Assembly: GCA_002435705.1 (NCBI GenBank)
Contig: DIVA01000052.1
Span: forward strand, 89,936 to 153,935
Origin: Bacteriovoracaceae bacterium UBA6144
GTDB lineage: Bacteria; Bdellovibrionota; Bacteriovoracia; Bacteriovoracales; Bacteriovoracaceae
DNA length: 64,000 bases
Reading direction: 5' to 3'
The notes below the pieces were generated by a model. The model saw only the letters and a list, made by a program, of their open reading frames with translations, was not told where the DNA came from and searched no databases. Shown here piece by piece: positions 22,349-46,854 of this stretch. Each line of letters opens with the position of its first letter. Positions within the stretch are counted from its first letter, which is position 1. The position numbers and the translations under genes were made by a program.

Positions 22349-25032
22349 GACTCAATGATACGAATGATCCCAAGACCCCCATCGATCTCAATCATTTGTC
22401 CCTCTTTTATCTTTTGAGTGACTCCAGGAACCGACACAATTGTGGGGATCCCAAATTTTCTGCCAGTGATCGCCGTGTGGGAGAGCATCGACCCTCGCTC
22501 CACCACCATCCCTTTGGAGGCGAGCATCAGAAAAAGCCACCCTGGATCTGTTTCTTTGGCGATCAAAATATCACCATCAAACATTTTTTCTACTTTTTGT
22601 GGATCAAGCACAATCCGCGCACGGCCTCGAACAATCCCAGGGCTAGATCCCAACCCCTTGAGTGTTGTTGCATCTTCTTGGATTTCTGGTTTTATGAGGA
22701 CCTGCTGATAAAGCGCTCCATTTGTGGTGATATCCATGGGGAGATCCACTTTTTCATGGGCTGCAAATTCTTGTCTTCTCAGATGAATGATCTCTTTTAA
22801 ATTGGTTTGAAGACTCGATCCCTCAATCAATCCAAAAACTTCATCTACGTGAAGAAAAAAGATGTCACTGGTATCTTGAATGACTCCAGCGTCTTTGAAA
22901 TGGAGAGCGATGCGATTAAAGATACGTTTAGAAAAGCCAAACAGTTCTGAACGGCAGTAGCGGGTATCTTCACGGTTTTGAATAAAACCTCTGAGACGCC
23001 AAAACTGAAAGCGCAGGATGGCGCGCTTAAAGGGGGAGAAGCGTAGTTTTTTAGCCAGTAGAGCTTCACCCTCTTCTCGGCGTTTTAATTCATCTTCTAG
23101 TATTTTTTCAACTGTCAAATTTTGAGAAAGGTAGTTTTTGATAATTTGAATGAGTTGAACCGGATCATCTCTCAGGCTTTTTTGTTCCAGCTTTAATTCC
23201 TGTAGGCCCCGGTCTCCAAAATGATACAGGTGATGCTCGATTTTTTCTTTCAGATGGCTGAAGGCATTGTCTTGGTAAATTCTATTCCATATGAAACTCT
23301 GATCTTCGGACTCAAAGAGTTGCAAGAGTAATGGGTCTTTTTTTACGAATTCACTCAGTGAGACACCATTGTACATGATCTCAACGCTCTTAAAATTATG
23401 ACCTCCGCACAGGAGGTTACTCATGAGTTGAGGATCATGTATTTTCCATGATTTCATGAGAAATTCTGTCACATGGTAGGCGGTCGGCAGGTGAGTGTCA
23501 TTGAGGAGAGTGATCCACCACTTGACGCCTACATCCTGCCATAATTGACGGTAGAGACTCATGCATTCAAAGCTTGAAAGTTCTTTAAAGTCTTTGCCTC
23601 TTAGTGGCTTGAAACGTTCTTCCCACCACATCAAGAATCGATTCACGTCTCTTTGATTGGTCAGGTAGCGCCAACTAATCAGCGCCAGTCCAAAGAGCGT
23701 GTAGCGAATAGAACCCAGACCTTTAATAAATTTTTTAAACTGACCTAGTCCTTGATCAATATGAAAGGAGCCAGAAAACCCCATCATGTCTTCCCATTGC
23801 TTTTTAAAAAAGATAAAAAGCGGACTCAGTGAGTGCAGGCGATAGAAACTTGAAAGATTGTAATAAATTTTACCATGCAGATAACCCACCATATGGTCGA
23901 GATGCTCAATGTTTTGCATGATAATTTTTTCAGGAACACCCAGGGCCCGATAGCAGTCGATAAATATGATACGGTAGAAGTCTTGAGCAAAAGAAAAGGT
24001 CAAGGGGGTGCTGGTCCCAGGAAAACTTTCAGACACATTGGCACTTGTCCAAACGATCACGCTTTGTTCACTAAACTGAATAGGGCGAGATTGTAAAATA
24101 TAAATCCTCTCATCTACCAGACACCCCTCAATGTCTTGGGGGGAAGCAAAAATCTTTTCAATTTTTTTGCCCATCTCACACAGCTTAAGTAGTTGGGCGT
24201 CGGTTAGGACCGGAGCCGTTTTTAGATCTGCCGGAGTAGGCTTTTCTATGATGCCTTCACCCTTCAAATCATCGTGGGTGAGATAGGTCTCTTTCGTTAC
24301 CACTTTTTTCTGAATAAAATTATTATTGGTTTTAATAAAATAATGATCTGTCTCGACCTTCTCTTGAACCACTCCTTCGCCCACACCGAGGCCTGCAACG
24401 ATGAGGGTTTTTTTCTCTAGGGTGTTTGGGTCACAGGTGAACATGACAAAAGATTTCTCTGCAAATATCATCTCTTGTATCCCCACCGCGACAGTGAAAT
24501 CAAAAAGATCAATCCCTTGCGTATGACGATAGGTCAAAACTTGAGGGCTAAAACCAGAGGCAAAACAGTCTTTTATGCGACTCAGAAGACTTTCTTTTTT
24601 TACATACAAAAAAGATTCACTCATTCCCGCAAAGGCATGGAGAACGGAGTCTTCGCTGTGGTCACGATTTTGAGATATCATCGAAGAGCGCACAGAAACC
24701 AGAGTGCCTGGCTTAAAGAGTTGATCAAATTTCTGGTGGAGAAGTTGGCTGAAGTCCTGAGGAAACTCAATATTTGAAATGAGTGAGTGGAGCTTGTGGC
24801 TTGCATCTTTTATACTTTGATCCGACTGCCAGTCAGTAGCCGCCAGAAGCTCTCGGAAGTCTTTTTGGAGATGACTCACTAGCTGTTTAAATACTTCTCC
24901 AGTGAGGCAAAAAAATGGAGGTACGGGTAATCCTGCTCGGGCCATAACCGATTGTTTCTGAAATTTTCCACCGACTTCTTCATCATGGAGTTTGTCACTT
25001 GAGAGCTTAAGGTGTCCGGCGGAGAGCTTCAT
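22345..25032 (-). CDS. PEP/pyruvate-binding (ATP-grasp) + swivelling phosphohistidine domain protein, rifampicin-phosphotransferase-like architecture
   Basis: N-terminal PPDK_N-like EEVGGKFQKQSVMARAGLPVPPFFCLT. C-terminal PEP-utiliser mobile domain ILIAKETDPGWLFLMLASKGMVVERGSMLSHTAITGRKFGIPTIV. About 450-aa helical middle domain. 895 aa. Confidence 0.75.
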   Translation of the reverse strand: MKLSAGHLKLSSDKLHDEEVGGKFQKQSVMARAGLPVPPFFCLTGEVFKQLVSHLQKDFRELLAATDWQSDQSIKDASHKLHSLISNIEFPQDFSQLLHQKFDQLFKPGTLVSVRSSMISQNRDHSEDSVLHAFAGMSESFLYVKKESLLSRIKDCFASGFSPQVLTYRHTQGIDLFDFTVAVGIQEMIFAEKSFVMFTCDPNTLEKKTLIVAGLGVGEGVVQEKVETDHYFIKTNNNFIQKKVVTKETYLTHDDLKGEGIIEKPTPADLKTAPVLTDAQLLKLCEMGKKIEKIFASPQDIEGCLVDERIYILQSRPIQFSEQSVIVWTSANVSESFPGTSTPLTFSFAQDFYRIIFIDCYRALGVPEKIIMQNIEHLDHMVGYLHGKIYYNLSSFYRLHSLSPLFIFFKKQWEDMMGFSGSFHIDQGLGQFKKFIKGLGSIRYTLFGLALISWRYLTNQRDVNRFLMWWEERFKPLRGKDFKELSSFECMSLYRQLWQDVGVKWWITLLNDTHLPTAYHVTEFLMKSWKIHDPQLMSNLLCGGHNFKSVEIMYNGVSLSEFVKKDPLLLQLFESEDQSFIWNRIYQDNAFSHLKEKIEHHLYHFGDRGLQELKLEQKSLRDDPVQLIQIIKNYLSQNLTVEKILEDELKRREEGEALLAKKLRFSPFKRAILRFQFWRLRGFIQNREDTRYCRSELFGFSKRIFNRIALHFKDAGVIQDTSDIFFLHVDEVFGLIEGSSLQTNLKEIIHLRRQEFAAHEKVDLPMDITTNGALYQQVLIKPEIQEDATTLKGLGSSPGIVRGRARIVLDPQKVEKMFDGDILIAKETDPGWLFLMLASKGMVVERGSMLSHTAITGRKFGIPTIVSVPGVTQKIKEGQMIEIDGGLGIIRIIES

Positions 25033-25958
25033 GGATGGCCTCTGGAGAGTGATTGTGCAAGTGGCTTGAGCTTCCCGATTGAATCGATAGCTTTAAACTC
25101 AGGGTATAGACTGATTAATTTTTCAGTGTCCATCGTTTGATTTTGACCAATCAGTTGCAGTTTTGTTGCCAGTGACTTCGGGCCCACTAGTTTTGTGACA
25201 GCAATAAAGAGCTTCACTGGAATGCTTCGGCGATGATGAAAGTTACCAAAGAGTGAATAGATTTCTTTGAGACTTATGCTTTGCGGGTAAGCGACATTTA
25301 AAACCATGGACTTCTCTAGATTGAGACCCAAAAGTATCAAGCGTACATAATCTTCTACGAGGATGTAACTGTATCGCTGTTCTCCGTTCCCCAATAAAAC
25401 ACCTTTTTGGAACTGCTGATAAATTTTGGGAAGTGTTTCTGTTTCACGCGGATCAAATAAAAAGCGTGGTCTAAAAATGTGATAAGGGATCTGTGCATTT
25501 GTTGCAAAGTTCACTACGAGTTCTTCAGCCTCTCGTCTGGTGTGGGCGAGGTTGGTTTGCGGGGCAGTTTGAGCTTCTTCGCTAACATTCAAAAAAGGTC
25601 CTTGGCCGTAGACTGACATGGATGAGCCCAGAAATATTTTTTTTATCCGATTCTGACCTGCAGTTAATATATTTTTGAGTCCATGAACATTGGTTTTTCT
25701 CAATGTTTCAAGATCTCGTGCTTTATGTTGATGGGCGAAGTGAAATAAAAAACTATTCTGTGAAAAGAGATCAGCGGGGATCGATTGAGTCAGATCGCCC
25801 ATGACGTAATCCACACCTGCCAGAGGCTTTGCGGGTAGTCGACGCACAAATGCCTTTATCGTATTTTGTGGATAGGCCGAGATTAACTCTTTAAGTAATG
25901 AGCTACCCACCAGACCATTCGCACCAGTTATAATGAAATGGATCGAGTGATCTACCAT
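25029..25958 (-). CDS. NAD(P)-dependent epimerase/dehydratase-type (extended SDR) oxidoreductase
   Basis: Rossmann motif FIITGANGLVGSSL and SSMSVYG segment. 309 aa. Coupled to its neighbours. Confidence 0.7.
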   Translation of the reverse strand: MVDHSIHFIITGANGLVGSSLLKELISAYPQNTIKAFVRRLPAKPLAGVDYVMGDLTQSIPADLFSQNSFLFHFAHQHKARDLETLRKTNVHGLKNILTAGQNRIKKIFLGSSMSVYGQGPFLNVSEEAQTAPQTNLAHTRREAEELVVNFATNAQIPYHIFRPRFLFDPRETETLPKIYQQFQKGVLLGNGEQRYSYILVEDYVRLILLGLNLEKSMVLNVAYPQSISLKEIYSLFGNFHHRRSIPVKLFIAVTKLVGPKSLATKLQLIGQNQTMDTEKLISLYPEFKAIDSIGKLKPLAQSLSRGHP

Positions 25959-26602
25959 AGCAGGGGAATGATCCTTTTACGGTTGAGAGCATACTCGGGA
26001 TATCCTTTGATTTGAAAGAGGGCCCGCTCTTCCACGAGGATGCGATAGACCACTGCAGGCACATGGATGAGCGCCCAAAACGCGAGAGTCCAATAGTTAA
26101 AAAAGAATAAACTGAAACCGAGGTGAGAGAGGATCATCCCTGTGTAGGCCGGATGGCGCACAAATCGGTAGGGACCCTGACTGATGATTCGATGTTCTGA
26201 TTGAACACGGACTCTGTGCGAGTAGAACTGACCCAACTGTCGAATGGCGACTAAACGAAAGATAATGGCGAGAACAAAGAGGGTGAAGCCTATAGCGTGC
26301 AGGAGATGTAATTCTAAAAATAATCCTGAAAAGTAGAGCCCAGACAAAACAACCAGTGCACGTGAGAATGCGTAGAGTTCAAGTGAAAACGAATCAATTT
26401 GAGTCTTCTCCTGACCGATTTCTTTGGTAGCAACCTTGGACTCTAAAACAATCCACAAGAGGTAGAGTCCCACAAAAACCAGTGTAGGAATAAAGAGAGT
26501 GCTTCCTTGAAGTTCTTGAGCACGCAGATAAGTCAGCCCAGAAATAGAGCCTAGAAACAAAACGGAGAGCAGGATGGGCAAGAAACCTTGAAAATGTCGC
26601 AT
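25952..26602 (-). CDS. isoprenylcysteine carboxyl methyltransferase (ICMT/PEMT)-family membrane methyltransferase
   Basis: Polytopic. C-terminal signature GPYRFVRHPAYTGMIL...VEERAL. Confidence 0.7.
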   Translation of the reverse strand: MRHFQGFLPILLSVLFLGSISGLTYLRAQELQGSTLFIPTLVFVGLYLLWIVLESKVATKEIGQEKTQIDSFSLELYAFSRALVVLSGLYFSGLFLELHLLHAIGFTLFVLAIIFRLVAIRQLGQFYSHRVRVQSEHRIISQGPYRFVRHPAYTGMILSHLGFSLFFFNYWTLAFWALIHVPAVVYRILVEERALFQIKGYPEYALNRKRIIPLLW

Positions 26603-26611
26603 GAACTTCTC

Positions 26612-27274
26612 CTACCAAATAAAAGGGATCATTTTGAAGCGAGTCTGCTTCGCGTATTCTTTGTATCTATTATCCTGCATGAGCAGTTTTTCTTCTAGCT
26701 GAATTCTCAAGATGACTACTCCCAGCCAAAGGCATAGAAAGAGCAAGGAAAAGCGGTTGAGGAATATCAAGCTGACACCAGCGTGAATAAAAAATGTTCC
26801 GCTATAGGCGCCATGGCGAATAACTGAGTACATCCCGCGGTCATGCAGATGTGTTCCAATCTCACGGATTCGATGCCCATAATGAGGTCCCAAATCTTTG
26901 ATACTCTTGCCTCTGACAAAAAATCCTAAAAGCATGATGCCGTAACCAATGCTCGCCACTATCAGGTAGTATTCAGAAGCGATAAGTTGGTTGGCCAAAC
27001 CGAGGCACGAAGCTAGAAGTGAGATCTTGATGAGAGCGGCAAGTTCCATGGTATTTTTGTCATAATCCAGACTTGCGCTCTTGTTCATCTCATTGACTGA
27101 AATTTTTGACTCAAAACTCATATAAAAGACATAACTCACCACAGTCAAAAGTTGGATCACTAAAAAACTCACAGGCCGTGGGATGAGAAACTGTTTGATA
27201 CTAACAAATCCTAAAAAAATCAGCCCGAAAATGGTGAAAAGTAAGGGAGAGAGCTTAATTAATTTATCTTTCAT
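26612..27274 (-). CDS. ICMT-family membrane methyltransferase paralogue (variant motif)
   Basis: Polytopic. GMYSVIRHGAYSGTFF...LEEKLL is homologous to the downstream neighbour, but the canonical RHP motif reads RHG. Confidence 0.65.
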   Translation of the reverse strand: MKDKLIKLSPLLFTIFGLIFLGFVSIKQFLIPRPVSFLVIQLLTVVSYVFYMSFESKISVNEMNKSASLDYDKNTMELAALIKISLLASCLGLANQLIASEYYLIVASIGYGIMLLGFFVRGKSIKDLGPHYGHRIREIGTHLHDRGMYSVIRHGAYSGTFFIHAGVSLIFLNRFSLLFLCLWLGVVILRIQLEEKLLMQDNRYKEYAKQTRFKMIPFIW

Positions 27275-28746
27275 TGGATCTCCTCAAAAGAGGTCTTGTA
27301 GATTTTGATGAGACTAGGGACCTTGTAGTTGGATAAATTTTGGCGAATCTTTTCAGCAATCTCTTTTTTGGTTAACAGAAAGTCTTTGGACACAAAAAGA
27401 GAAAGTGTTAGTTTTTCTCTCTCTCTTTCCACACTCATAAAAGCGCGTGCCATCTTAACGCCAAAAATGGTCTTACATAATTCTTCAATCTCTTTGAGAT
27501 CGACCATATTGCCTAGGACTTTAGTGAAATTAAGTCTTCTGCCTAAGAAGATGATCTGATTCTGTTCGTTGAAATAAGCCAGATCTCCCGTGCGTAGCCA
27601 GCCTGAACGAAAGAGCTGATCTCGAAAAGATTCATCACCGATATATTTCGTAATCACCCCTTGACCGCGTAAGCATATTTCTCCTGCTTTTCCTTTTGGA
27701 ACTTCGAACCCTTTACTGTCCAGGATTTTAAGTTCCACTCCCGGACGCATCAGCATACCTAGGGTCGCTGGTTGCGGATCTTTGGGGTGGTTTGTAAGAA
27801 TTGGCAGTGTTTCTGTGAGACCATAGCCTTGGGTGACTTTAAGGTTAAATTTTTCAGATATTTGATTAAAGAGATGAGGAGTCAGATAACTTCCACCTGC
27901 CACAATCGTCAGGTGTGAGAGATCTCTTTTTTCTCTAAGTTTACTCGCCTCGAGGAGCATCTTTTCTAGGATGACCGGGACCACGTTCATGTGCTGAATC
28001 TCATATCGTTCGATGAGTTGCAGGATAGAGCTTAGTTTTTTATCAGAAACATAAAGCTCACAGCCTTCAAAAATAGGAAAGAGTAAGTTTGTCACAAGAC
28101 CGAAAACCGGATAAGAAGGCAAAGTCAAGAGTAAGCGGTGACGAGGTTTGAAATCAAAAATACGTGCACAACTCTCGATAGCATAGAGGTAGTCTTCATA
28201 GGTATGTTCAACTCCGAGAGGAGTGGCAAATCCCTTAAAGGTCATGTGACAAGTCACAACTTGATCATGCTCAGGAGCAGTAAGTTTGTCAGGTTTTTTA
28301 GAAGGGGTAAGGCAGTTATGAAGAAAAAACAGCTCATGGCTAAGTTCTTGGTCGCCATTCTTAAGAGTTAATACAGCTTCAAGATTTTTATGAGAGAGAA
28401 AGAAATCAGTGTGATCGATAAGAAACGAGTAGTCACAAAGTACTGTTTTAAAGTTCACAAGCTTGGCAATGTTTTTTAATTCATAGGAAGTGCAATGTGG
28501 TGCAACCGGCAGGAGTATTGCCCCGAGAGAGCTCAGTGCCAGAAAACTGATGAGCAAGTCCTTTTCACTTTCAAAAGCGACCAAGACGTAATCACGCTTT
28601 TTGATACCTTGCTTTTTCAAAAAGGTTAAAAGTTGCCTTGCTTCTAAAGAGAGATCTTCGTAGGTGGTCTCTTTTTTTTGATCCACATAATTAAAGGCCA
28701 CGAGTTTTTCATGCTGACGAAAATTATGGAAGAGGCAACTTTTCAT
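27271..28746 (-). CDS. AMP-dependent synthetase/ligase (acyl-AMP / acyl-ACP ligase candidate)
   Basis: Adenylate-forming motifs TQGYGLTET, GWLRTGDL and the C-terminal K in NYKVPS. 491 aa. 4-nt overlaps on both sides. Confidence 0.8.
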   Translation of the reverse strand: MKSCLFHNFRQHEKLVAFNYVDQKKETTYEDLSLEARQLLTFLKKQGIKKRDYVLVAFESEKDLLISFLALSSLGAILLPVAPHCTSYELKNIAKLVNFKTVLCDYSFLIDHTDFFLSHKNLEAVLTLKNGDQELSHELFFLHNCLTPSKKPDKLTAPEHDQVVTCHMTFKGFATPLGVEHTYEDYLYAIESCARIFDFKPRHRLLLTLPSYPVFGLVTNLLFPIFEGCELYVSDKKLSSILQLIERYEIQHMNVVPVILEKMLLEASKLREKRDLSHLTIVAGGSYLTPHLFNQISEKFNLKVTQGYGLTETLPILTNHPKDPQPATLGMLMRPGVELKILDSKGFEVPKGKAGEICLRGQGVITKYIGDESFRDQLFRSGWLRTGDLAYFNEQNQIIFLGRRLNFTKVLGNMVDLKEIEELCKTIFGVKMARAFMSVEREREKLTLSLFVSKDFLLTKKEIAEKIRQNLSNYKVPSLIKIYKTSFEEIQ

Positions 28747-31571
28747 TTCTCACCTCTTTGCAAGTGATAGTAATCGGGGCTGACGACTTGGGCTTTTATC
28801 TTACCTTGTCCGAAGACTCGCTCTTCGAGCATGAAGTCAACGATCACGTCGGCCACCAGAAAGTCTTCTGTTTCCGTGAGTTTGAAATTTTGCAGTTTCA
28901 TCTGGAAGGGTGGCTTGACCCACTGTGCGAGGTTGATCTCTGTGGCAATCAGATTCATCTTTGAACTCAAGGGTATTTTTTTAACCAAGTGAGCCAGTAA
29001 CATTACAAACTGCCGAGTCACCTCTGCAAAATAGAGTGTTGAAGGAGTCGTGAGCCCGTTAAAGAAAGGTCCTCTCTCTTCAGAGAGTGGTAGGGTCCAA
29101 ACAGTCTGGGACTCAAGGTCCAGAGTTGAAACGAGAACGTTTTCTTCGCGATGTTTGTGAGTCAACTTTTGATTCTCTCTCGTAAAGATTTGATCAAGTT
29201 TTGGACTAAAACTGGAAAAATGAGGGAGTGCTTTCACATCCACCTTGAGAATTCCGGCCCGGACCTTGTCTTGATTGATCTCAAATTCAATAGAACCACT
29301 TTCTCTTTGGGTAAGACTTATTAAAACCGGTTTATTCTTTTCTAAAAACTTTGTAAATCTGATGGTCATCGTTTGGATCAGATAAGGTGAATCCATAAAC
29401 CAGCGTAAGAGCTCTTCGCATCCATGAATGGGGAGAATGCCTGGTATATGGTCAAGGGGGTGATCAAAGAAGTATTTCTCAGTCTCATCCACCACGAGAG
29501 TAGCACTGGCACTGTGAGTTGTTTTCTGACATTTCTCCAGGAACCTCCCAAGCTTTTCCTCATGAGTATGGTCAATTTTGAGAAACATTAAAAGATTAAG
29601 GTAATCAAGTGCTATTTGTTTGTTGAGTTTACTTTGAGCAATAAGATCTTGCATCAGTTCTGATGGGCCTGACTTAAGAAGAGTTTTTTCTAATTTAAGA
29701 TCTCTGAGATTAAGATGCAGTTCTTTCGTTTCAAGAAATTGATAAAATTCGAAAGCTCCTGTCGCTTCTCCCAGTTCTCTGGGGTGTCCTGTCGTTTGGG
29801 ATGCCCCCAAGGTTATCTTTGCAATGGAATTGGTATTTTGCATTTGGCGCAGCCTAAGTCCCAGCATAAAAGCCTTTTCTGGCTTCTCAACTGATCGATG
29901 GGCGATAAGCAATATAATTTCTCCCTGAGCTTGTGCTAAAAGTTCAGGAATAAGTTTTAGTGCAGAGATGAAGCAACCCTCATCCCCACTTAGAGTCATG
30001 TGATGGCCCTGAAAGTTAAACAGAATGCTTGGGTGACCACTCATCATGGATGGAAGAGTCGATGCAATAGCTTCAATACTGAGTTCTGGGTGAGTCAGGT
30101 TGAGGTGGTACTTCTTTTCAAATTCCACACTCAGCTGTCCCCCCAAATTATTGACGGCAATGCAACTCATATTACGTTTTTCTGCTTCTTCGCTATTAGA
30201 AATGAGTTCTTGGGTCAGGTGCATCGCCCATCTCTGAAGCGGATCAATCCTCTCCTGCATCCGAGGCCCCATTCCTACATTTTTTATGACCGGTGGAGCC
30301 TGATTTAGAGATTGCGCATTGAGCGGTATGAAGTTTTGCACATAGAAAGTCGCATCTGCTTTTGGCTTTTGTTGTGATTTCTCAGTCAGCTCTGAGGTCA
30401 AAATAATGTGCGCATTTGAGCCACCAAAACCAAAAGAGGAAATACCTATCACCATCGAGTCTTTTTGTATTTTCTTGGGTGTATCAAGGATGGAAAGATT
30501 TAAGCGGCTAAGATCCTCTCTCTCGGTAATGGAAATATGAGGCAAGAGTACCTTATGCTTAATCATGAGAACAGATTTAATCAGGGATGCCAGTCCTGAG
30601 GCAGCGAGAGTGTGGCCAATGTTGGCTTTCAGTGATCCGATGGTAAGTTTTTTATGTGGACTCGGTTTAAAGAATTGATGAAGACTTCTGCATTCTGTCT
30701 CATCTCCCAAGATGGTAGCCGTTCCATGAGCTTCAACGTAGTCTACTTGATCAGGAGATATTTTTGATTGTTGATAGGCCCGCTCATAGGCATGAAGCTG
30801 TCCAAAAAATCCCGGACTAAAAGCTGACCCTTCACTGCCGTCACTCGAGAGACCAATGCCAGCAATTTGTGCGAGAGCATTGTGAGGCTTAAGACTTAGT
30901 GTAATTCCACAAACGGCCTCACCAAGCACAATTCCGTCAGCATTTTTATCAAAGGAATTGAGCTCTCCCTTAAGTGAAAGTGCCCCAAGTTTTGTAAATC
31001 CTCGGTAAAGAAATGAATGAAGGGAGAGATTGAGTCCTAAGACGATCACTTGGTCACACCCCTGCTGCAGGATCCCTCGCGCCAGCTCCAATGCGTAGAG
31101 CGATGAAGCACAGGCGGTATCAACCGCTAAAGCCGGCCCTTCAATACCCAAAGACTTTTGAATCACCTTTACTTGCCGATCTAGAGCGTAACCTAAGTGC
31201 GCAGGTATGATATTGAGCTGGGCCTTGTAGAAACTGTCATCAGTCCATTCGCATGCGATGACAAGTCCCGTTCGCAGCATTTGGGAATCAGGGGGGAGTC
31301 TATTTTTTAATCTTAGACCAATGTCGATGGCCCCTTGGATTTGCCGAGGAAAAGTTTTATCTTGAGGTCTATACTTGGCTAAATGGGCGAGGTCTTGCTG
31401 GATCTTTCCATCAACCTGATGCCGATAAGTTTCTGGGTCTAGCCCCCAGTAATGAGCTAGGCTCTCTGCTTTAGTTTTTTTTCTTTGGATCAGAAGTTCC
31501 CAAAACTCTTCAAGGTTTGCGGATTCAGGAAATATTCCGTCCATGTCATGAATGTATAAGGATTGGGTCAT
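28743..31571 (-). CDS. type-I-PKS-like ketosynthase fused to a truncated KS-like half-domain and an AfsA-like double hotdog domain
   Basis: KS triad: DTAC(154)ASSL, EAH(282)GTAT, NIGH(320)T. Residues ~435-600 repeat the KS N-terminal half (RIDPLQRW..., SGDEGC(533)FISAL) without a His-His half. C-terminus has YFFDHPLDHIPGILP (aa ~699-713) and HKHREENVLVS...GPFFNGLTTPSTLYFAEVTRQ (aa ~805-853), like the two AfsA repeats. Confidence 0.7.
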   Translation of the reverse strand: MTQSLYIHDMDGIFPESANLEEFWELLIQRKKTKAESLAHYWGLDPETYRHQVDGKIQQDLAHLAKYRPQDKTFPRQIQGAIDIGLRLKNRLPPDSQMLRTGLVIACEWTDDSFYKAQLNIIPAHLGYALDRQVKVIQKSLGIEGPALAVDTACASSLYALELARGILQQGCDQVIVLGLNLSLHSFLYRGFTKLGALSLKGELNSFDKNADGIVLGEAVCGITLSLKPHNALAQIAGIGLSSDGSEGSAFSPGFFGQLHAYERAYQQSKISPDQVDYVEAHGTATILGDETECRSLHQFFKPSPHKKLTIGSLKANIGHTLAASGLASLIKSVLMIKHKVLLPHISITEREDLSRLNLSILDTPKKIQKDSMVIGISSFGFGGSNAHIILTSELTEKSQQKPKADATFYVQNFIPLNAQSLNQAPPVIKNVGMGPRMQERIDPLQRWAMHLTQELISNSEEAEKRNMSCIAVNNLGGQLSVEFEKKYHLNLTHPELSIEAIASTLPSMMSGHPSILFNFQGHHMTLSGDEGCFISALKLIPELLAQAQGEIILLIAHRSVEKPEKAFMLGLRLRQMQNTNSIAKITLGASQTTGHPRELGEATGAFEFYQFLETKELHLNLRDLKLEKTLLKSGPSELMQDLIAQSKLNKQIALDYLNLLMFLKIDHTHEEKLGRFLEKCQKTTHSASATLVVDETEKYFFDHPLDHIPGILPIHGCEELLRWFMDSPYLIQTMTIRFTKFLEKNKPVLISLTQRESGSIEFEINQDKVRAGILKVDVKALPHFSSFSPKLDQIFTRENQKLTHKHREENVLVSTLDLESQTVWTLPLSEERGPFFNGLTTPSTLYFAEVTRQFVMLLAHLVKKIPLSSKMNLIATEINLAQWVKPPFQMKLQNFKLTETEDFLVADVIVDFMLEERVFGQGKIKAQVVSPDYYHLQRGEK

Positions 31572-34500
31572 ACATTTTTCCCAATGCTATAATTGAGCGT
31601 AGACTTTGGAGTGAAGAGTACTTTTGAATGATTCAGACCGTGGTGTAGCACTTCTTCCTTAAACAAACGAATGCCTGCGCGATTGGAAATACCAGATAAC
31701 TTCAACTCTTGCATCCTGAGGAGGAGATTGTCTTGGGCCAATCCCGTTTCACTCCAAACAGACCAGAGGAGCGCCGCTACGGGATAGGGAGATTGAGCAT
31801 TCCATTTGATGGCCAGTTGGTTTAGAACTTCATTGGCGTAAGAGTAGTCTGTCTGACCGGGAGCTCCCGACCAACTAGAAAGGGAACTAAAAAAACAAAC
31901 GAAACTTAGCTTCTTTTCATCTGAAAATGTTTCATAAACATTATACGCAGAAGCAATCTTTGACTGTACCACCTGTCGAAAGTCTTCGTAGCTTTTATTT
32001 TTTAAAAGATTATCTCTGGTTAAGCCAACAGCGTGAATAATTCCATCAATCTTGCCAAAGTCTTTTTGAATTTTACTAACCGCTTTTTTTAAATCGATAC
32101 TCTTGGTTGCGTCAGCCGAGATATAATGAAAAACACCACCGCGGCGCTCAATTGAATCTTTGGTGTTCCAAATTTCACGCTGATTATTCACTTCCGTGTA
32201 GCGAAGGTTAAATAAAAAGTTTTGTTCTGAGGCATCGGCATGGGCATGAGTTTTAAGAATTTCTTTTTTTAGTTCATCTCTTAACTCAGCATCACTTTGA
32301 CACTCATCAAAGGGGCGAGTGGCGCTGAGGGGCGTTCGACCAATGGCACTGACCGTTGCTTGTCGATAATCAGCTAGGAATTTTGCAATTTCTGAGGTGA
32401 TTCCTCTGGCTCCCCCTACAAGTAAAATGTGTGGAGAGGCAGGGAGAGTGATGTGAGCATTAACTTTTGGGGGTTCAATGATTTTAATTGCTTCTCTAAA
32501 GAAATTATTGCCCTGCTGAGTGAGAGAAATGAATCGCTCATTTGTGTTTTGATAGAAAAACTGCCAGGGGATGCTCTTGGTTGTCGTTTTGTTAATTGTC
32601 ATGTCCAGCAGGCGGAAGGAGTGAGTCACTTCTTTCGAAAGTGACTTTAATGCTGCCGGCAAAGAAGCGATAAGAGGGTTATGGTGAGAATCATAAATGA
32701 GACAGAGCTTGGTTGGGCTCAGTTGGTTCAGTGACTGACATAACTCATATATTTCTTCTATTTGTTTTTCGATATTCGCCCTCTCCCAACTGAGATGACT
32801 AAATTGAAGAAAGATAAAATAGCATGAGAAGGAGCCAAGATTGGTGATTTGATTGCGTAGAGTACTCATGGTTGGGAGCGTAAAATATTTTTGATCGGCA
32901 AAAAAATCTTTGAACCCAATGTTTTTCTCCCACGGCCCAACCAGTAAATAGGCATGGTCCGGGTGATCTTTTCGGCTTTCTTGTTTAAATTTTATTTCCT
33001 CTAGTTCAAATTCAAAACGAGAAACTTCCTCGTCACTTCCACGGGTTTTTGATCTACGGTCAAAGATTTCTTCAATCTCGAGTAAGTCACCTAGGGTTTT
33101 TGCATGAAGCATTTCTCGAACTGCGAGCTGCAAGTAAGGATGTTTAACGATGAGAGAATTAATGAAATCCTCTTTCTCGAAAATATTAAGACGTAGGTCA
33201 TGTTCAAAATCACTCGTGGACTGTATTTTTTCAAGTTTAAGGTTTAAGAAATGCGCCAAATTTTCTTTGATCGAGAGTGAGCTTTTCTTCTCATGCCCCT
33301 CTCCTGTCAGCCGCCCCTGATGTTTAATCAAGAGTGTTTGAATCTCAAGGAGACTGTTGACGCGAGTAAGCTCTTCAATCTTTAAGTCGAGTTGTGGGAA
33401 GCGTGTTTTAAGATTCGCAATAAGTTCCAGCTTAATAAGAGAATCAAGCATCAGGTCTTCATTAAAGCTCGAAGAGGGTGAAATCTTGTCCGTGCTTATG
33501 CCGGTGTAATTTATAATTTCGTTTCTCAGCCACGCCACTTCGTCTCTGAGCTCTTCCTGGGAGTTTTGTACTTTGTATTTAGAGATAATAGCATTTAATT
33601 CTCTGACCGAATTTGCATTGAGTAGTGCCGTCATATCAGACACATCTGCCTTAAACTTTTCAGATAAATTAGACAACAATTCAAGCTTGGTCATTGAATC
33701 GAGGTACAGGTCGCTGTCAAAACGTGCGTCGAGGCTAATCTCTGAAACTTTAAAACCTGTGAGGAGTGAAATTTCATTTAAGATGAGCTCAGTGGAAGGG
33801 TCTAAGGTGGAATGCTCATTTGTCTGCGGTGTAAGTCCTTCTATCTTAAAAAAGTTTGCAAGAACTTCTTCCGTGTCAGCAGCGATGATTCTTTTCACTG
33901 CACTTTGCTCACCAGCTGAGAGTTGAGAAACCTGGGCCATGAGGAGCTGTTGTTTTTCCAAGAAACCTTTGATGATTTTGTTTTCCTTATCACCTTTAGA
34001 CGTTGCAATGGTTACATTACTGACTACAGCGTCCAGTTTTTTTTGACTTTCTTTTACCTCAATACCCAAAGCTAAAAGGGGCATCAGAAAGTTCTCTAGC
34101 TCTTTAGTTCCATCTAGATTTAGACAGATGTAATCTTCACCAAGAATTTCTTGCGTGAGTTTTGTGAGAATGTTTTTTGGACCAACTTCAATAAAGAGTT
34201 TTACCCCTTTTGTGGCAAGGGTATTCACTGCATGGATCCAATCAACTTGATGGGTCAGTTGTTGTGAGAGATGTGTCACGACATCGCTAGTATTTTGGTA
34301 GCTGCTCACAGGGTTACAGGCGATGACTGTATTGACTCGAGTCCTCTTGGTAGTGAGGAGTTTTTGTAAAAATTGATGGAACTTCACTTCGGCAGGTTTC
34401 ATGAGCGGAGAATGAAATGCAGCTGAGGCTGTGAGCATTGTAGAGCGAATCTGATGTTTAAAACAGATCTGAGCTAACTCTTCAATATCATCGACTCCTG

Positions 34501-35263
34501 CGGAGTAAACGATTTGAGAGGGGGAATTGATATTGGCAAGCCAGTTTTCAGCTTGGGGTATGAGATCGACTATCTTCTGATGTAGGTTTTTCCAATTATG
34601 ATTATCTCTTTCAAAGATAGCGAGCATTTTTCCTGAGGCCAGGATATTGGCCTCAGCCATCACTCGCCCACGCTCAAGACTCATGTCGACTAACTCATCT
34701 AAAGAGATGAGTTCACTGTGTTTGAGAGCGCAGAGTTCTCCAAAGCTATGTCCCGCACTAAAGGCGGCGAGAATGTTGTGGCTTTCAAGTAGCCTCAGGC
34801 TTGCCATGTTGGCACAAGTTAAAAGTGGCTGAGTGAATTGAGTCTGATCAATGCCTGCTTCCATTCCATTGTAGAGAGAGGCGAGAGCTAATTTCTTGTC
34901 TGAGAATTTTCTTAAGAGTTGCTCAAAGGTCTCACTGAAAGCAGTATAAGTCTGAAGGTGCTGGAGCATTTGCACGTACTGGCTGCCTTGGCCTGGAAAG
35001 AGAAAGGCCCTTTGCTCAACAGGTATGCTCCTTTCAGAATAGGTAAAAAAATCTGAGCGATAAAAAGTTGAAGTCGAAGCTTCAAGGTCTGTGACGATTT
35101 GTTTTTTTAATTTCTGAAACTGATCTTGATGTTGCAGGAGTAGGCAGAGTCTCACTGGTCCAGAGCCCAGAGTGCTTATCTTATCCGTAGGATACGTCGA
35201 CTGATTGAGAAGATCCAAAATGCCATATTTAGAATCTGCTTTGAGGAGCAAAAGTTTCTTCAA
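31568..35263 (-). CDS. multidomain PKS/FAS-like protein: acyltransferase - ACP - ACP - degenerate ACP-like - ketoreductase
   Basis: AT: FLFPGQGSQYVQM, GHS(173)FGE, AFHSPLM. ACP1 LDS(523)M. ACP2 LDS(608)L. Third ACP-like helix bundle has Asn693 in the Ser position (LRLNIF). KR: LLVGGARGITSEIA and Y(1140)SYAN. TTG start after AGGGA. Confidence 0.8.
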   Translation of the reverse strand: MKKLLLLKADSKYGILDLLNQSTYPTDKISTLGSGPVRLCLLLQHQDQFQKLKKQIVTDLEASTSTFYRSDFFTYSERSIPVEQRAFLFPGQGSQYVQMLQHLQTYTAFSETFEQLLRKFSDKKLALASLYNGMEAGIDQTQFTQPLLTCANMASLRLLESHNILAAFSAGHSFGELCALKHSELISLDELVDMSLERGRVMAEANILASGKMLAIFERDNHNWKNLHQKIVDLIPQAENWLANINSPSQIVYSAGVDDIEELAQICFKHQIRSTMLTASAAFHSPLMKPAEVKFHQFLQKLLTTKRTRVNTVIACNPVSSYQNTSDVVTHLSQQLTHQVDWIHAVNTLATKGVKLFIEVGPKNILTKLTQEILGEDYICLNLDGTKELENFLMPLLALGIEVKESQKKLDAVVSNVTIATSKGDKENKIIKGFLEKQQLLMAQVSQLSAGEQSAVKRIIAADTEEVLANFFKIEGLTPQTNEHSTLDPSTELILNEISLLTGFKVSEISLDARFDSDLYLDSMTKLELLSNLSEKFKADVSDMTALLNANSVRELNAIISKYKVQNSQEELRDEVAWLRNEIINYTGISTDKISPSSSFNEDLMLDSLIKLELIANLKTRFPQLDLKIEELTRVNSLLEIQTLLIKHQGRLTGEGHEKKSSLSIKENLAHFLNLKLEKIQSTSDFEHDLRLNIFEKEDFINSLIVKHPYLQLAVREMLHAKTLGDLLEIEEIFDRRSKTRGSDEEVSRFEFELEEIKFKQESRKDHPDHAYLLVGPWEKNIGFKDFFADQKYFTLPTMSTLRNQITNLGSFSCYFIFLQFSHLSWERANIEKQIEEIYELCQSLNQLSPTKLCLIYDSHHNPLIASLPAALKSLSKEVTHSFRLLDMTINKTTTKSIPWQFFYQNTNERFISLTQQGNNFFREAIKIIEPPKVNAHITLPASPHILLVGGARGITSEIAKFLADYRQATVSAIGRTPLSATRPFDECQSDAELRDELKKEILKTHAHADASEQNFLFNLRYTEVNNQREIWNTKDSIERRGGVFHYISADATKSIDLKKAVSKIQKDFGKIDGIIHAVGLTRDNLLKNKSYEDFRQVVQSKIASAYNVYETFSDEKKLSFVCFFSSLSSWSGAPGQTDYSYANEVLNQLAIKWNAQSPYPVAALLWSVWSETGLAQDNLLLRMQELKLSGISNRAGIRLFKEEVLHHGLNHSKVLFTPKSTLNYSIGKNV

Positions 35264-35416
35264 GATTTCCCTAAGTCTTTAATGAGATTGTCTGAATTTA
35301 TTTTAGGTTAATTGGAGAGTTGTCTCAATAAAACAATACCTGAGTAAAAGTCTCTTGCCTTGTGTTCAATTCCTTCTATTGATACCTTTTATGTGTCACT
35401 AAACAAGAGAGAAACC

Positions 35417-36085
35417 ATGGCTTTTATTGAAGCTCGTCAATTGAGAAAATCCTATGCTAGTGCGGATCACGAAGTCGAGATTTTGAAAGGGATTAATCTG
35501 GGGATTGAAAAAGGTGAGTTCATTTCACTGATGGGACCTAGTGGTGCGGGAAAAAGTACTTTGCTGCAGTTACTTGGTGCCCTTGATCGTCCCAGTGCGG
35601 GAGAAATTATTATTGATGGAAAAGATCTATCTCGGATGTCGGATACCGAATTAACTCTTTTCCGTAGGCGCCGTCTTGGTTTTATTTTTCAATTTTTTAA
35701 TCTCATGCCTACTTTAAATGTTCTAGAAAATGCGGCCCTCCCGTGTTTTCTTGATGGAAAGAGCCTGAACTCAGTGCGAGGGTTTGCCACGGAAACATTG
35801 GAGCGCTTGGGCCTTGGGCATCGACTCGATCATCGCCCCCACCAACTCTCAGGTGGAGAAATGCAACGGGTGGCCATTGCCCGCGCCTTGGTCAATAAGC
35901 CTTCACTTATCTTAGCCGATGAGCCAACGGGTAATCTGGATTCAAAAAATGGGGCTGAGGTTCTCAGCATTTTAAAAAATTTAGTGAAAGATTTTAATGT
36001 GACTTTAGTTATGGTGACTCATGACAAAAGTGCGGCAGAAGTGGCAGATCGTAAAGTGCAGCTTCTCGATGGCGTTGTCGTTTAG
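35417..36085 (+). CDS. ABC transporter ATP-binding protein (MacB/LolD-type)
   Basis: Walker [10 protein letters not shown], signature [15 protein letters not shown], Walker B LILADEPT. The ATG at 35417 is preferred over the TTG at 35360. Confidence 0.85.
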
Positions 36086-36094
36086 GAGCCTTGA

Positions 36095-38701
36095 GTGATT
36101 TTAAATCTATTTCGTTATTTTTCCTTGCGCTATCTTATTCTTCATCCCTTTAGAAGTCTTTTGACAGCATTGGGTGTTGCTCTGGGCATATCATTGTTTT
36201 TGTCGATTCGACTCCTCAATGATGCGACGCTGAGATCTCTTGATCAAAACATTGAATCGATGACGGGGAAGTCAGATCTTACGATTACTTCTGATGGAAT
36301 GGGCTTCGAAGAGGCGGTACTGGAAAAAGTCAAGGCCCTCACATCCGTGAAGGCTGCCATCCCTCTCATATTAAATTACGCCTATGTTGATGATGCCCCC
36401 GATGCCACTCCCATGGTTTTCCTTGGGATTGATATGCTCAAGGACACATCCATTAGAGATTACAATGAGGGTGGGGGAGACATCGTTCCTGATCCACTGG
36501 CTTTTGTGAATCAAGCCGACAGTGTGATAGTCACAAAATCTTGGGCGAAACAGAACAATCTTCAGATGGAAGATAATATTGATCTGTTAACGAAAGAAGG
36601 GGTGAAGTCATTTGCCATTCGCGGCCTGATCGATAACGTAGGTCCAGCTAAAGCTTTCAATGGAATGCTGGCCATCATGGATATTGATGGGGCGCGATTT
36701 AATTTTGGCCGCGATGGTCTTTATGATCGTATTGATATTCTGATTCATCCTGGGTCGAACCTCGATGAACTAAAAACAGAGCTGCAGCAACTTCTGGGGT
36801 CGCGTTTTCGGATAGAGGATAAAACTGAGCAGTCTGAATCAATGCAGCAGCTCGTGAAGTCAGTGCAAGATGTTTCAAACCTCTTAGGTCTCATTGCTTT
36901 TCTTGTGAGTTTCATGATTATTGTGAACACCGTTAACACCGCGATCTCTCAGCGAAGAAAAGACATTGGTTCATTACGTGCTTTTGGAGCAGCTTCTCAT
37001 CACATCGTCATACTCTTTGCTGGTGAGTTTCTCTTCCTGGCCCTGATCAGTTCCATTCTTGGTTGTTTTATTGGGATCAGCTTTGCGGAGAGTTCAGCAG
37101 ATCAGATGGCCCGCGGTCTTAATTCGACCCTTATGACAAACGTGAATCAGATGGCGATCACTTTTGGACTAAGTGATTTTTTCGCCTCTGTTATCTTGGG
37201 GCTTCTCAGTTCCTCGGTCGCTTTAATCTATCCTCTCTATAAAGCGCTTCAGATAAACCCGATTGAAGCCATCAAGCCTGCAGTGGTTGATTTTACTCAT
37301 CATAAAAAGCCCAGGCTTTTCATCTGGGCCGCTTGGCTTGGATTTTTATTAATGAGTCTCACTGTGGCGGCTGATTTTTTCTCGGCTCAAGTGGAGTGGC
37401 TCCAGGCCAAAGACATCCAACCACTCATTCTTCTACTAGGACTCTCAGGAATTGTTCTCATGGGTCCCTACCTCGTTCTCACTCTCTTGGGGCTCATCCA
37501 TCGCTTGCCTTTGCCTTTTCTGTTTAAGTTTTCTATGGCGAATTTACTTAAAAATCCTCTCCGGACGGCCAGCACATCCATCCATCTTTCTTTGGGCTTT
37601 AGCCTCGTGATCATTGTAACGGCCATCAACCTCTCTTTTAAATCCACCATCCTAAGCTGGACCGAACGAATTACTAGTATGCCTCACTCCGTAAATATTA
37701 CTCCTTGGGGCAGTATTTCTGGGCTTCAGATTCAACCTCTGCATGAATCCTTGATTCCACGCTTAAAGGAAAGCCTGCCAGGGTTGAATCCCTTAAACCC
37801 TAAGCCCATTCTTGCGATACGTATTATTCCTCTGACCATTCAATCTCAGCGCTATATTGTGAAGGCTTACGATAAGCCTTCAAATACCTCAATCATCCGC
37901 TACATTGATCCTATTGAAGGGAAGCGGGAAGACTTGGCCAATGCTCTTTTTGATCCCTCACAAGACACGCTCCTTTTATCTGAGACGATGTTGAAACATA
38001 TAGGCAAAAAAGTCGGTGATCAATTTGAGATAGAGACTCCCTCTGGATTAGTAAGTTTTAGGATCGGTGGTAATATCCGTGAGTTCGCAAGCCCTAATGG
38101 TGTCATCTACATGGACCGTGAGGTTTATAAAAAATACTGGAAAGACCCTCTTGTCACTCTCCTCTCGGTCGATCATGACCCTGCTCTCACAAGTGTGGAT
38201 TATATCAAACTCATTAACTCTCAGGTCAAGGGAGAGCATCTTGTGGTGAATCTCCCGGCCAAGATTCGTGAAGAGGTGGCACGCAACCTGGAAGATAATA
38301 TGGCCATGAGTGACTCGACCAAATGGGTGGCACTTTTTATTGGAACATTAGGACTACTGAATTCAATCCTCATTGCTATCCTTCAGCGTTTTCGAGAACT
38401 GGGCTGTATTCGATCGATTGGTATGACCAAAGGGCAGATGCTTTTGATGATTCTGCTGGAATCAGCGAGCCTTGGATTTATCGGTATTATCGTTTCTTTT
38501 GCTCTCACTATTCCACTCTCTTATCTTTGGGTGAATTCGACCTTGAGCTATATGCTTGGCTGGAAAGTGGATTTCTTTTTTACGATGAAGGACTTCCTGT
38601 GGCTCTTTGGCATCGGTCTCTTTGTTTCATTTATTGCAGGCATCCTTCCGGCCATTAAAGCCTCAGGCCTAAAGTTGCGAGAGGCCCTAGAATACGAATG
38701 A
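36095..38701 (+). CDS. ABC transporter permease with two FtsX/MacB-type domains (YbbP-like)
   Basis: 868 aa. Two copies of the 4-TM FtsX module, each preceded by a large periplasmic domain (RKDIGSLRAFGA...; RELGCIRSIGMTKGQ...). Confidence 0.8.
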   Translation: MILNLFRYFSLRYLILHPFRSLLTALGVALGISLFLSIRLLNDATLRSLDQNIESMTGKSDLTITSDGMGFEEAVLEKVKALTSVKAAIPLILNYAYVDDAPDATPMVFLGIDMLKDTSIRDYNEGGGDIVPDPLAFVNQADSVIVTKSWAKQNNLQMEDNIDLLTKEGVKSFAIRGLIDNVGPAKAFNGMLAIMDIDGARFNFGRDGLYDRIDILIHPGSNLDELKTELQQLLGSRFRIEDKTEQSESMQQLVKSVQDVSNLLGLIAFLVSFMIIVNTVNTAISQRRKDIGSLRAFGAASHHIVILFAGEFLFLALISSILGCFIGISFAESSADQMARGLNSTLMTNVNQMAITFGLSDFFASVILGLLSSSVALIYPLYKALQINPIEAIKPAVVDFTHHKKPRLFIWAAWLGFLLMSLTVAADFFSAQVEWLQAKDIQPLILLLGLSGIVLMGPYLVLTLLGLIHRLPLPFLFKFSMANLLKNPLRTASTSIHLSLGFSLVIIVTAINLSFKSTILSWTERITSMPHSVNITPWGSISGLQIQPLHESLIPRLKESLPGLNPLNPKPILAIRIIPLTIQSQRYIVKAYDKPSNTSIIRYIDPIEGKREDLANALFDPSQDTLLLSETMLKHIGKKVGDQFEIETPSGLVSFRIGGNIREFASPNGVIYMDREVYKKYWKDPLVTLLSVDHDPALTSVDYIKLINSQVKGEHLVVNLPAKIREEVARNLEDNMAMSDSTKWVALFIGTLGLLNSILIAILQRFRELGCIRSIGMTKGQMLLMILLESASLGFIGIIVSFALTIPLSYLWVNSTLSYMLGWKVDFFFTMKDFLWLFGIGLFVSFIAGILPAIKASGLKLREALEYE

Positions 38702-41469: not shown

Positions 41470-41548
41470 AAAGCTCGGGAATTTTTTTCTGGGCCAAAGC
41501 ATGGGCTTTTTGAAATGATTTCAGGGTTTCATTCCCAGGAGTCATACA

Positions 41549-42454: not shown

Positions 42455-42459
42455 GTATT

Positions 42460-46848: not shown

Positions 46849-46854
46849 CCTTTT

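Follow-up and report, generated by a model that had tools for sequence, protein, structure and literature searches.

The question raised by this locus is what is made by a ketosynthase (KS) that is joined, in one polypeptide, to a domain of the AfsA family. The gene lies on the minus strand at 28743..31571 of a 64,000-nt stretch of contig DIVA01000052.1 (assembly GCA_002435705.1, Bacteriovoracaceae bacterium UBA6144), referred to here as the window, and is an ATG-to-stop open reading frame (ORF) of 942 aa plus stop. AfsA converts a 3-oxoacyl group carried on acyl carrier protein (ACP), together with dihydroxyacetone phosphate (DHAP), to a butenolide phosphate. Enzymes of this type make the butyrolactone and butenolide hormones of actinomycetes, and also the salinipostin and cyclipostin phosphotriesters, which are potent inhibitors of lipases and serine hydrolases. 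Our reading, to which we give a probability of about 0.6 on the basis of sequence and of analogy with known systems, is that the protein serves both to condense and to release the chain, as one subunit of a minimal two-protein type I polyketide synthase (PKS), which would off-load its chain as a phosphorylated butenolide whose phosphate is then tailored.

The KS domain occupies aa 1-405 (30357..31571, minus strand; PF00109/PF02801, E about 1e-34). When the whole 942-aa protein is scanned, Pfam recognises the N and C halves of a KS (aa 1-348), KAsynt_C_assoc and AfsA. The catalytic residues are C154 in DTACASS, H282 in EAHGTAT and H320 in NIGHT, with codons verified at 31110-31112, 30726-30728 and 30612-30614, respectively, and all three are unchanged in the 75 full-length homologues that were aligned. 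The domain aligns with solved PKS ketosynthases, eg 7zma (E 1.9e-64), and the Cys-His-His triad and the thiolase fold of the Foldseek matches are those of an elongating beta-ketoacyl synthase. A full-length AlphaFold model, generated from the 75-sequence alignment, has a mean pLDDT of 93.4 and a pTM of 0.75.

The family of the C-terminal region was determined with profiles. AfsA (PF03756) scores 45.2 bits on the whole protein, in two matched stretches and above its curated cut-off of 24, and 50.8 bits (E 2.3e-13) on the C-terminal 311 aa alone. PS-DH (PF14765) and FabA (PF07977) give no match to the window protein, even at E<=10. The 18 diverse family members that were scanned all match AfsA (best 1e-30); nine of them match FabA weakly (best 7e-4) and none matches PS-DH. 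The HxxxGxxxxP motif of dehydratases is absent from the window hotdog, where PLDH comes directly after H704 and the residue at +4 is not Gly. When aa 641-942 are modelled by AlphaFold on their own (pLDDT 94.3), two helix-in-sheet units are seen, ie a predicted double hotdog. By sequence profile, then, the C-terminus is a double hotdog of the AfsA family and not a PKS or FabA dehydratase.

The two repeats were assigned by alignment to Streptomyces ScbA. The first, aa 665-790 (29202..29579, minus strand), contains YFFDHPLDHIPG (29430-29474) and is homologous to the second repeat of ScbA. The strongest Pfam AfsA stretch (aa 681-755) falls within it; the NCBIfam ScbA/BarX model pairs aa 687-760 with profile positions 193-272 of 290, and positions 24-92 of a hotdog profile made for the family (the YFFDHPLDH-PG repeat) align with ScbA 191-260 at 31.7 bits. 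The second repeat, aa 791-942 (28746..29201, minus strand), carries HKHREENVLVS and YFAEVTRQ (29010-29033) and is homologous to the first repeat of ScbA, positions 135-218 of the family profile (the HKH-x-x-ENVL ... E-x-x-RQ repeat) aligning with ScbA 2-84 at 28.2 bits. The motifs themselves are found at aa 700-714 (YFFDHPLDHIPGILP), 805-815 (HKHREENVLVS), 834-839 (GPFFNG) and 847-854 (YFAEVTRQ). A stand-alone 'AfsA-related' protein from an Aliiroseovarius plasmid has its repeats swapped as in the window protein.

Residues D703, H704, D707, H708 and P710, which form a D-H-x-x-D-H-x-P motif, and K806 are invariant in the 75 homologues, and E850, R853 and Q854 are retained in 74 of them. Mutagenesis of ScbA has identified E78, R81, E240, R243 and R174 as residues that matter (PMC13454427). 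E850 and R853 are the equivalents of E78 and R81. The position equivalent to E240 is Glu in 49 of the 75 family members, and the Arg equivalent to R243 is not conserved; of the two E-x-x-R pairs of the ScbA type, one is retained in the window's clade.

Between the KS and the hotdogs lies a degenerate KS-like half-domain, aa 406-637 (29661..30356, minus strand), with a weak match to PF00109 at profile positions 77-171. When aligned by hand to the KS motif, the family consensus appears unconserved where the active-site Cys of this pseudo-KS would be expected. It is followed by a long helical linker, aa 638-664 (29580..29660, minus strand), which DSSP calls as helix in the models. The top PDB match of the whole model in Foldseek is the KS-chain-length-factor didomain of PfaC (6riw), over 757 columns. 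From sequence and model, the roughly 230-aa half-KS gives the protein an arrangement like that of a KS with its chain-length factor. The pseudo-KS region is apparently longer in relatives of 1100-1200 aa; it may act as a dimer mimic or in the docking of the ACP.

These results bear on a first-pass annotation of the same sequence, which had proposed an intact KS with the triad C154/H282/H320, followed by a hotdog region resembling the two repeats of AfsA and not fitting a PKS dehydratase. The triad and the hotdog motifs that it quoted are where it placed them, and the 50.8-bit score puts the likeness to AfsA far beyond chance; the profile comparison that it suggested, with PS-DH and FabA as the competing models, came out for AfsA. 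Its outline of KS plus hotdog was right, and what it overlooked was the intact ketoreductase (KR) encoded upstream, the pseudo-KS, the swapped repeats and the loss of the E240/R243 equivalents.

The fusion gene is one of eight minus-strand genes extending from 35263 to 21458, mostly coupled by overlaps of 4 nt (ATGA-type) or 7 nt. The gene upstream (31568..35263, minus strand) encodes a 1231-aa AT-ACP-ACP-KR protein, AT being an acyltransferase (Pfam Acyl_transf_1, PP-binding in two stretches, and KR), and its stop overlaps the start of the fusion gene as ATGA. Its domains lie at 34139-35014 (AT), 33596-33787 (ACP1), 33344-33541 (ACP2) and 31748-32428 (KR). We take the AT motifs GHSFG and AAFHS to be of the malonyl type, as standard PKS motifs, and LDSM and LDSL to be phosphopantetheine sites with the Ser intact in both ACPs; the KR motifs, GGARGIT and K/S/YxxxN, are presumably those of an intact domain. 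Downstream of the fusion is an AMP-dependent ligase (27271..28746, minus strand; PF00501, 181 bits), predicted to activate the starter acid, whose top NCBIfam match is a long-chain fatty-acid ligase subfamily, below cut-off. The ligase is likewise directly downstream of the fusion gene in the related loci L002, L003, L005 and L006, is elsewhere in the cluster in L004, and has matches in almost all KS-AfsA loci. The suggestion of the first-pass annotation that the beta-ketoacyl-ACP is supplied in cis fits this operon, in which the AMP-ligase, a malonyl-type AT, two intact ACPs and an intact KS are encoded in translational coupling.

The remaining genes of the operon are of a tailoring kind. Two membrane methyltransferases of the ICMT/PEMT family (Pfam ICMT/PEMT) are encoded at 26612-27274 and 25952-26602 (minus strand). 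The first has a weak match to the model for LmtA, a lipid A 1-phosphate O-methyltransferase, and the second shares 57% identity over 102 aa with the ICMT protein encoded beside an AfsA-related gene of S. clavuligerus. They are followed by a reductase of the NAD-dependent epimerase / NAD_binding_4 type (25029..25958, minus strand; Pfam Epimerase, 3Beta_HSD and NAD_binding_4), conserved in related clusters. We do not call this reductase an orthologue of BprA, as BLASTP against the NAD(P)H-binding gene beside a genuine scbA (the BprA-like position) gave no match. Next is an 895-aa phosphoenolpyruvate (PEP)-utilising / PPDK_N phosphotransferase (22345..25032, minus strand; PF01326 + PF00391), which is Spt1-, PigC- and Rph-like, ie of the PEP-synthase type, and 37% identical over 920 aa to a protein of the S. 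clavuligerus cluster. The last gene (21458..22348, minus strand) encodes a UbiA-superfamily-like membrane protein with a weak match to the NCBIfam prenyltransferase PRK13592; its orthologue in L003 matches PF01040 weakly, and it is 31% identical to a protein of the S. clavuligerus cluster. Directly downstream of the operon are a cytochrome P450 (20153..21505, plus strand; PF00067, 277 bits), which L003 and several related loci have at the corresponding position, and a hexapeptide acyltransferase. Among the window genes scanned (about 16.6-41.5 kb) there was no match to a HAD phosphatase, and there was no nearby gene for a receptor of the ArpA/ScbR type.

Upstream, at 35360..40751, Pfam identifies an ABC ATPase and a MacB/FtsX permease (plus strand) and DUF1302-like and LolA-like genes (minus strand), which are likely to be the export set of the cluster; ABC/FtsX genes are likewise upstream in L002. 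A similar set of LolA-like, MMPL and ABC-FtsX genes flanks the stand-alone AfsA-related gene on the Aliiroseovarius plasmid (L008). The presence of export-type genes beside both the PKS operon and the L008 gene suggests a dedicated export route of the lipid type. Beyond the export genes, 40831-44309 encodes a class I S-adenosylmethionine-dependent methyltransferase, an ORF with no Pfam match, a protein like the alpha subunit of haem-dependent oxidative N-demethylase, and a protein of the fatty-acid hydroxylase family. Further away, the GC content falls to 0.33 at 46001-48000, compared to about 0.45 elsewhere, and neither of the ORFs in that stretch (45433-46848 and 47271-48179) is matched by Pfam, which together point to a possible foreign insertion. 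An ORF of 918 aa at 52641-55397 has the unusual architecture of an NqrB/RnfD-like membrane domain with FG-GAP repeats and an ASPIC/UnbV domain.

The distribution of the fusion was determined in three ways. The identical protein occurs on at least five independently assembled contigs, and about 78 of the best 120 database matches are KS-AfsA fusions, from Bacteriovoracaceae, Ideonella, Bryobacteraceae, Planctomycetota, Chloroflexi, Desulfobacteraceae, Klebsiella, Paenibacillus and others. A phmmer search of 1.84 billion representatives gave 214 proteins at E<=1e-3, with lengths of about 1000-1260 aa, 2000-2600 aa (the match being always C-terminal) and 260-450 aa. Finally, one genome per GTDB species was scanned for the motif YFFDH[PA]LD, which gave 78 loci whose ORFs were compared with the window proteins; the best locus among these species representatives, which do not include the window's own genome, was 57% identical. 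The nearest relatives are from Bacteriovoracaceae and 'Proteobacteria' pond metagenomes, and the neighbouring genes are of a diderm type. In the window and most related loci the KS and AfsA share one ORF. A search of a plasmid collection gave a single Burkholderia match, a stand-alone AfsA-related gene.

Four arrangements are seen among the AfsA-related loci. The window-like type, with genes for the AT-KR protein, KS-AfsA, ligase, ICMT, reductase, PEP-utilising and UbiA-like proteins, occurs in Bacteriovoracaceae and pond metagenome-assembled genomes (MAGs), Bryobacterales, Planctomycetota, Ideonella, Polyangiaceae, Syntrophomonadaceae and delta-proteobacterial MAGs. In the second type a single large PKS is found: L066 has an ORF of 2617 aa with the order FAAL-ACP-KS-AT-(DH-like)-ACP-TE-AfsA (DH, dehydratase; TE, thioesterase) in which no KR is detected, and after this ORF comes the ICMT / reductase / PEP-utilising / UbiA-like set that is known from the window; L079, L068 and L071 have ORFs about as long. 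The third, or Pseudomonas, type is present in about 38 Pseudomonas species and in Serratia, Leclercia, Janthinobacterium, Neisseria and Klebsiella (including L022, L004 and L016-L060). Here the neighbours of KS-AfsA are a ligase, an epimerase-type reductase, a tandem-ACP protein, an SRPBCC protein, an outer-membrane beta-barrel and two further enzymes, a HAD hydrolase and an aromatic-type FAD hydroxylase, and phosphate-handling genes are absent. This orphan cluster is very widespread in plant- and host-associated Gram-negatives, and one Neisseria version of it is on many contigs from different samples.

The fourth, actinomycete type (Streptomyces humicola, Micromonospora, Planobispora, Actinokineospora and the S. 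clavuligerus megaplasmid) has a stand-alone AfsA-related gene followed by ICMT, PEP-utilising and UbiA-like genes in the order seen in the window. Compared with their window counterparts, the PEP-utilising proteins are 34-40% identical over about 900 aa, the ICMT proteins up to 57% and the UbiA-like proteins about 30%. The S. clavuligerus 'AfsA-related' protein gave no match to the window KS-AfsA protein by BLASTP, and the family profile matches it at the E-x-x-RQ repeat only. This cassette is found in L009 (S. clavuligerus megaplasmid, NZ_CP065235.1 454064-461473), L072-L078, L082, L084 and L085, is apparently uncharacterised, and in some cases has an added oxidoreductase, NUDIX or P450 gene. 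Over all the AfsA-related loci, the PEP-utilising and ICMT genes are present together in 29 of 78, and in 27 of those 29 the UbiA-like gene is present too; actinomycete loci with a stand-alone AfsA-related gene are among them. The cluster of Paenibacillus lentus (L006), a Firmicute version, has neither PEP-utilising nor UbiA-like genes; it has CarS-like (CDP-archaeol-synthase family) and Lgt (diacylglyceryl transferase) genes beside an ABC exporter, which hint at an intermediate resembling a glycerophospholipid.

From the domain identities, catalytic residues, operon structure and cross-phylum conservation that were observed, we infer the following chemical steps, acceptor and product. The ligase would activate a carboxylic acid, probably a fatty acid, and the AT would load malonyl onto the tandem ACPs. 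The KS would condense the two, using C154, H282 and H320, to give a 3-oxoacyl-ACP. The AfsA-related double hotdog, in place of a thioesterase, would then take the 3-oxoacyl chain off the ACP and attach it to a triose phosphate at its hydroxyl, the acceptor being likely DHAP by analogy with AfsA, Spt9 of the salinipostin pathway and the release domain of the gladiostatin PKS, and an intramolecular Knoevenagel condensation would give the phosphorylated butenolide. The KR, the epimerase-type reductase or both may reduce the ring double bond or the exocyclic ketone. The phosphate would stay on the molecule, and its modification would fall to the PEP-utilising enzyme, the UbiA-like protein and the pair of ICMT-type methyltransferases; hydroxylation of the product by the P450 and its export through the ABC/LolA-like set are possible further steps. 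Release as a phosphorylated butenolide is supported by the terminal, TE-like position that the AfsA domain holds in full PKS modules. It is also supported by the Pseudomonas-type clusters, which add a reductase and a phosphatase (HAD), the remaining steps of the A-factor type, and by the window-type clusters, in which a salinipostin-like phosphate-handling set is found instead and no phosphatase was detected. The cluster family probably makes a phosphate-bearing lactone lipid.

Several results weigh against this reading. As judged from the alignments, the hotdog repeats stand in reverse order to those of canonical ScbA/AfsA, and the equivalents of ScbA E240 and R243 are His716 and Glu719 in the window's clade. 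The NCBIfam equivalog for ScbA/BarX (NF041195) scores 57.8 bits, below its cut-off of 200. With the hotdog model Foldseek returns generic double hotdogs, ie TesB/FatA thioesterases and PKS dehydratases, at a TM of about 0.5, and a PDB sequence search with the hotdog region gave nothing at E<=10, hence no AfsA-family structure for comparison. A nucleoside-diphosphate kinase (NDK) of the Spt6 type (PF00334) has no match among the genes scanned. The acceptor could be glyceraldehyde-3-phosphate, as proposed for the Pseudomonas enzymes StoB and AcaA (PMC7154651), and our literature search found no paper that assigns a product to a KS-AfsA cluster or reports an assay of one. It is also a difficulty that the Knoevenagel step needs the 3-keto group, which the KR would remove if it acted first.

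Part of this evidence would suit a double hotdog with no AfsA chemistry, ie one that acts on the chain held by the ACP as a thioesterase, dehydratase or cyclase, to release or modify it: the solved folds nearest to it are PKS dehydratases and the thioesterases TesB and FatA, FabA is matched weakly by half of the family members scanned, and the repeats are permuted and the E240/R243 equivalents not conserved. We regard this as improbable. The modelled fold neighbours do not separate the candidate functions, the profiles place the hotdog in AfsA in 18 of 18 members and in PS-DH in none, and the dehydratase motif is missing. The separate TE domain that some relatives also carry can be cited on its behalf, yet argues that the AfsA domain is not itself a TE; the neighbouring genes, moreover, are for a phosphatase or for phosphate handling, as expected if the product is phosphorylated. 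It is scarcely conceivable that the fusion has no joint function, ie that faulty gene calling or assembly, or the decay of a pseudogene, has joined two unrelated ORFs. That explanation is refuted by conservation, at least 75 full-length homologues from many phyla having the same architecture and catalytic residues; the recurrence of the identical protein on the five or more contigs and the modelling of the entire chain as one confident structure also speak against it.

The main alternative is that the AfsA-related domain is an O-acyltransferase from acyl-ACP to triose phosphate (or glycerol phosphate) and forms no butenolide. The KR would reduce first, giving a 3-hydroxyacyl-DHAP, which the reductase would convert to a lysophosphatidate-like lipid; alkylation or prenylation by the UbiA-like protein and methylation by the ICMT-type enzymes would then lead to an unusual membrane or signalling phospholipid. 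The apparently intact KR, which every window-like cluster has as part of its AT-ACP protein, the conserved NAD-dependent reductase, and export genes of a lipoprotein or lipid type (LolA-like, MacB) are all compatible with such a route, as are the CarS-like and Lgt genes of the Paenibacillus lentus cluster, both of which act on glycerophospholipids. The UbiA superfamily, moreover, includes glycerol-phosphate prenyltransferases. However, in related clusters that have this ICMT / reductase / PEP-utilising / UbiA-like set, no KR is detectable in the PKS, so that the shared chemistry needs no 3-keto reduction, and all AfsA-family enzymes that have been assayed yield butenolides from 3-oxoacyl thioesters (PMC7756379; 10.1101/2020.10.11.335315). 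We therefore consider the acyltransferase explanation unlikely. Under release as a phosphorylated butenolide the KR is probably accessory, as the large single-PKS relatives share the tailoring genes and have no detectable KR; it probably acts as an exocyclic-ketone reductase or in a first round of elongation, and does not define the chemistry.

A more specific version of the preferred reading is that the AfsA-related / ICMT / PEP-utilising / UbiA-like set encodes cyclic enol-phosphotriesters like cyclophostin or cyclipostin, in which case the ICMT-type enzymes would O-methylate the phosphate, in the manner of LmtA on lipid A. We hold this to be doubtful. No paper assigning genes to cyclophostin was found in the literature search. 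If it were true, the locus would represent a Gram-negative route, possibly in a predatory bacterium, to organophosphate inhibitors of serine hydrolases, and a pointer to the genes for cyclophostin-type compounds.

The mechanism of AfsA-type release and the occurrence of AfsA enzymes outside actinomycetes are established, and a KS-AfsA fusion has been noted in print. Three things appear to be undescribed: how large and how widely spread over phyla the KS / pseudo-KS / AfsA family is, the reversed order of its repeats, and the tight link to an ICMT / PEP-utilising / UbiA-like module which it shares with the actinomycete stand-alone versions. The reversed order defines a recognisable AfsA subfamily that current equivalog models miss. 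The locus belongs to a large, cross-phylum and uncharacterised family of clusters in which an AfsA-type step is wired to its own KS, with phosphate-modifying genes in place of a phosphatase. If our reading is correct, phospho-butenolide chemistry extends well beyond actinomycetes, the fusion is a compact and portable 'KS plus release' unit for engineering, and the cluster offers a genetic handle on the assembly of phosphotriester natural products.

Compared to Streptomyces AfsA, ScbA and BarX, the window protein has the same two hotdog repeats, HP-x-DH-[VI]-PG motif and E-x-x-R-Q helix motif, and the substrates that those enzymes use, 3-oxoacyl-ACP and DHAP, are the ones proposed for it. It differs in the reversed repeats, in the single E/R pair of its clade, in the fusion to a KS and in taking its acyl donor from a dedicated PKS, not from fatty-acid synthesis. 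For the N-terminal two thirds the best match is the PfaC didomain (6riw) of a polyunsaturated fatty acid synthase, in which an active KS is likewise followed by an inactive KS-like domain; the sequence identity is 18%, the second domain of the window protein is about half a KS, and the resemblance is one of fold only.

In the salinipostin cluster Spt9 (the AfsA homologue) is accompanied by Spt1 (PPDK_N/PEP-utilisers), an AMP-ligase (Spt2), an ACP (Spt4), an NAD_binding_4 reductase (Spt5), Spt6, an NDK by which the butyrolactone phosphate is pyrophosphorylated, and Spt7, a UbiA protein; such clusters have been reported from actinomycetes only (PMC8209734; 10.1101/2020.10.11.335315). Spt9 is reported to be the butyrolactone synthase of the pathway and to act like a PKS-embedded AfsA domain (preprint 10.1101/2020.10.11.335315). 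In a spt-like cluster, according to Creamer et al., homologues of spt1, spt5, spt6, spt7 and spt9 are all present. The window has counterparts of Spt1 (PF01326 + PF00391), Spt5 (PF07993), Spt7 (UbiA) and Spt9 (PF03756), at the level of Pfam families and with a weak link for UbiA. At that level the two systems share an AfsA-family enzyme with PEP-utilising, ligase, ACP, reductase and UbiA-type genes, and the retention and elaboration of the phosphate in salinipostin is what is proposed for the window product. In contrast, neither Spt6 (NDK) nor Spt8 has a match among the genes scanned, the gene order differs, and the window has in addition a KS, an AT, a KR, two ICMT methyltransferases and a P450.

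Outside actinomycetes, an AfsA-like 'phosphorylated butenolide synthase' (PBS) domain that releases PKS chains onto DHAP was described in 2020 from Burkholderia gladioli (PMC7756379; PMC7756420). In vitro, the PKS-embedded domain catalyses the condensation of 3-ketothioesters and DHAP (PMC7756379). When it is deleted gladiofungin is no longer made, and orphan PKSs with a terminal AfsA domain have been noted in Gloeobacter, Paenibacillus and Ruminiclostridium (PMC7756420). Like this domain, that of the window is of the PF03756 family and covalently joined to PKS domains in a non-actinomycete, in place of a thioesterase, and release of a 3-keto thioester onto DHAP is the mechanism proposed for it. 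The gladiostatin/gladiofungin PBS is, however, the last domain of a large multimodular trans-AT line, stands after an ACP and is accompanied by a phosphatase, whereas the AfsA domain of the window is fused to a KS and pseudo-KS, has its ACPs on a separate protein, and belongs to a single module with its own AT and phosphate-modifying genes. Styrolide and acaterin of Pseudomonas depend on the AfsA-like butenolide synthases StoB and AcaA (PMC7154651). These likewise act in Gram-negative bacteria, where the butenolide is built from a 3-oxo thioester plus a C3 unit of glycolysis, and their clusters also encode a ligase, ACP-like proteins and the KS StoI (PMC7154651); they differ in being stand-alone enzymes, in having a separate KAS III condensing enzyme and in the C3 unit proposed, glyceraldehyde-3-phosphate.

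The first-pass annotation had expected a KS-AfsA fusion outside actinomycete systems to point to a new chemistry. The fusion is real, and in view of these precedents (PMC7756379; PMC7756420; PMC7154651; PMC8719888) it is not new in kind. The closest in architecture is a 'KS-AfsA domain' protein of the orphan 'PKS 1' of Pseudomonas Ps664 (PMC8719888), a fusion which, from its published description, is like that of the window. It is part of a larger PKS, with the order A / T / KS-AT-KR-T-KS-AT-KR-T / KS-AfsA / TE.

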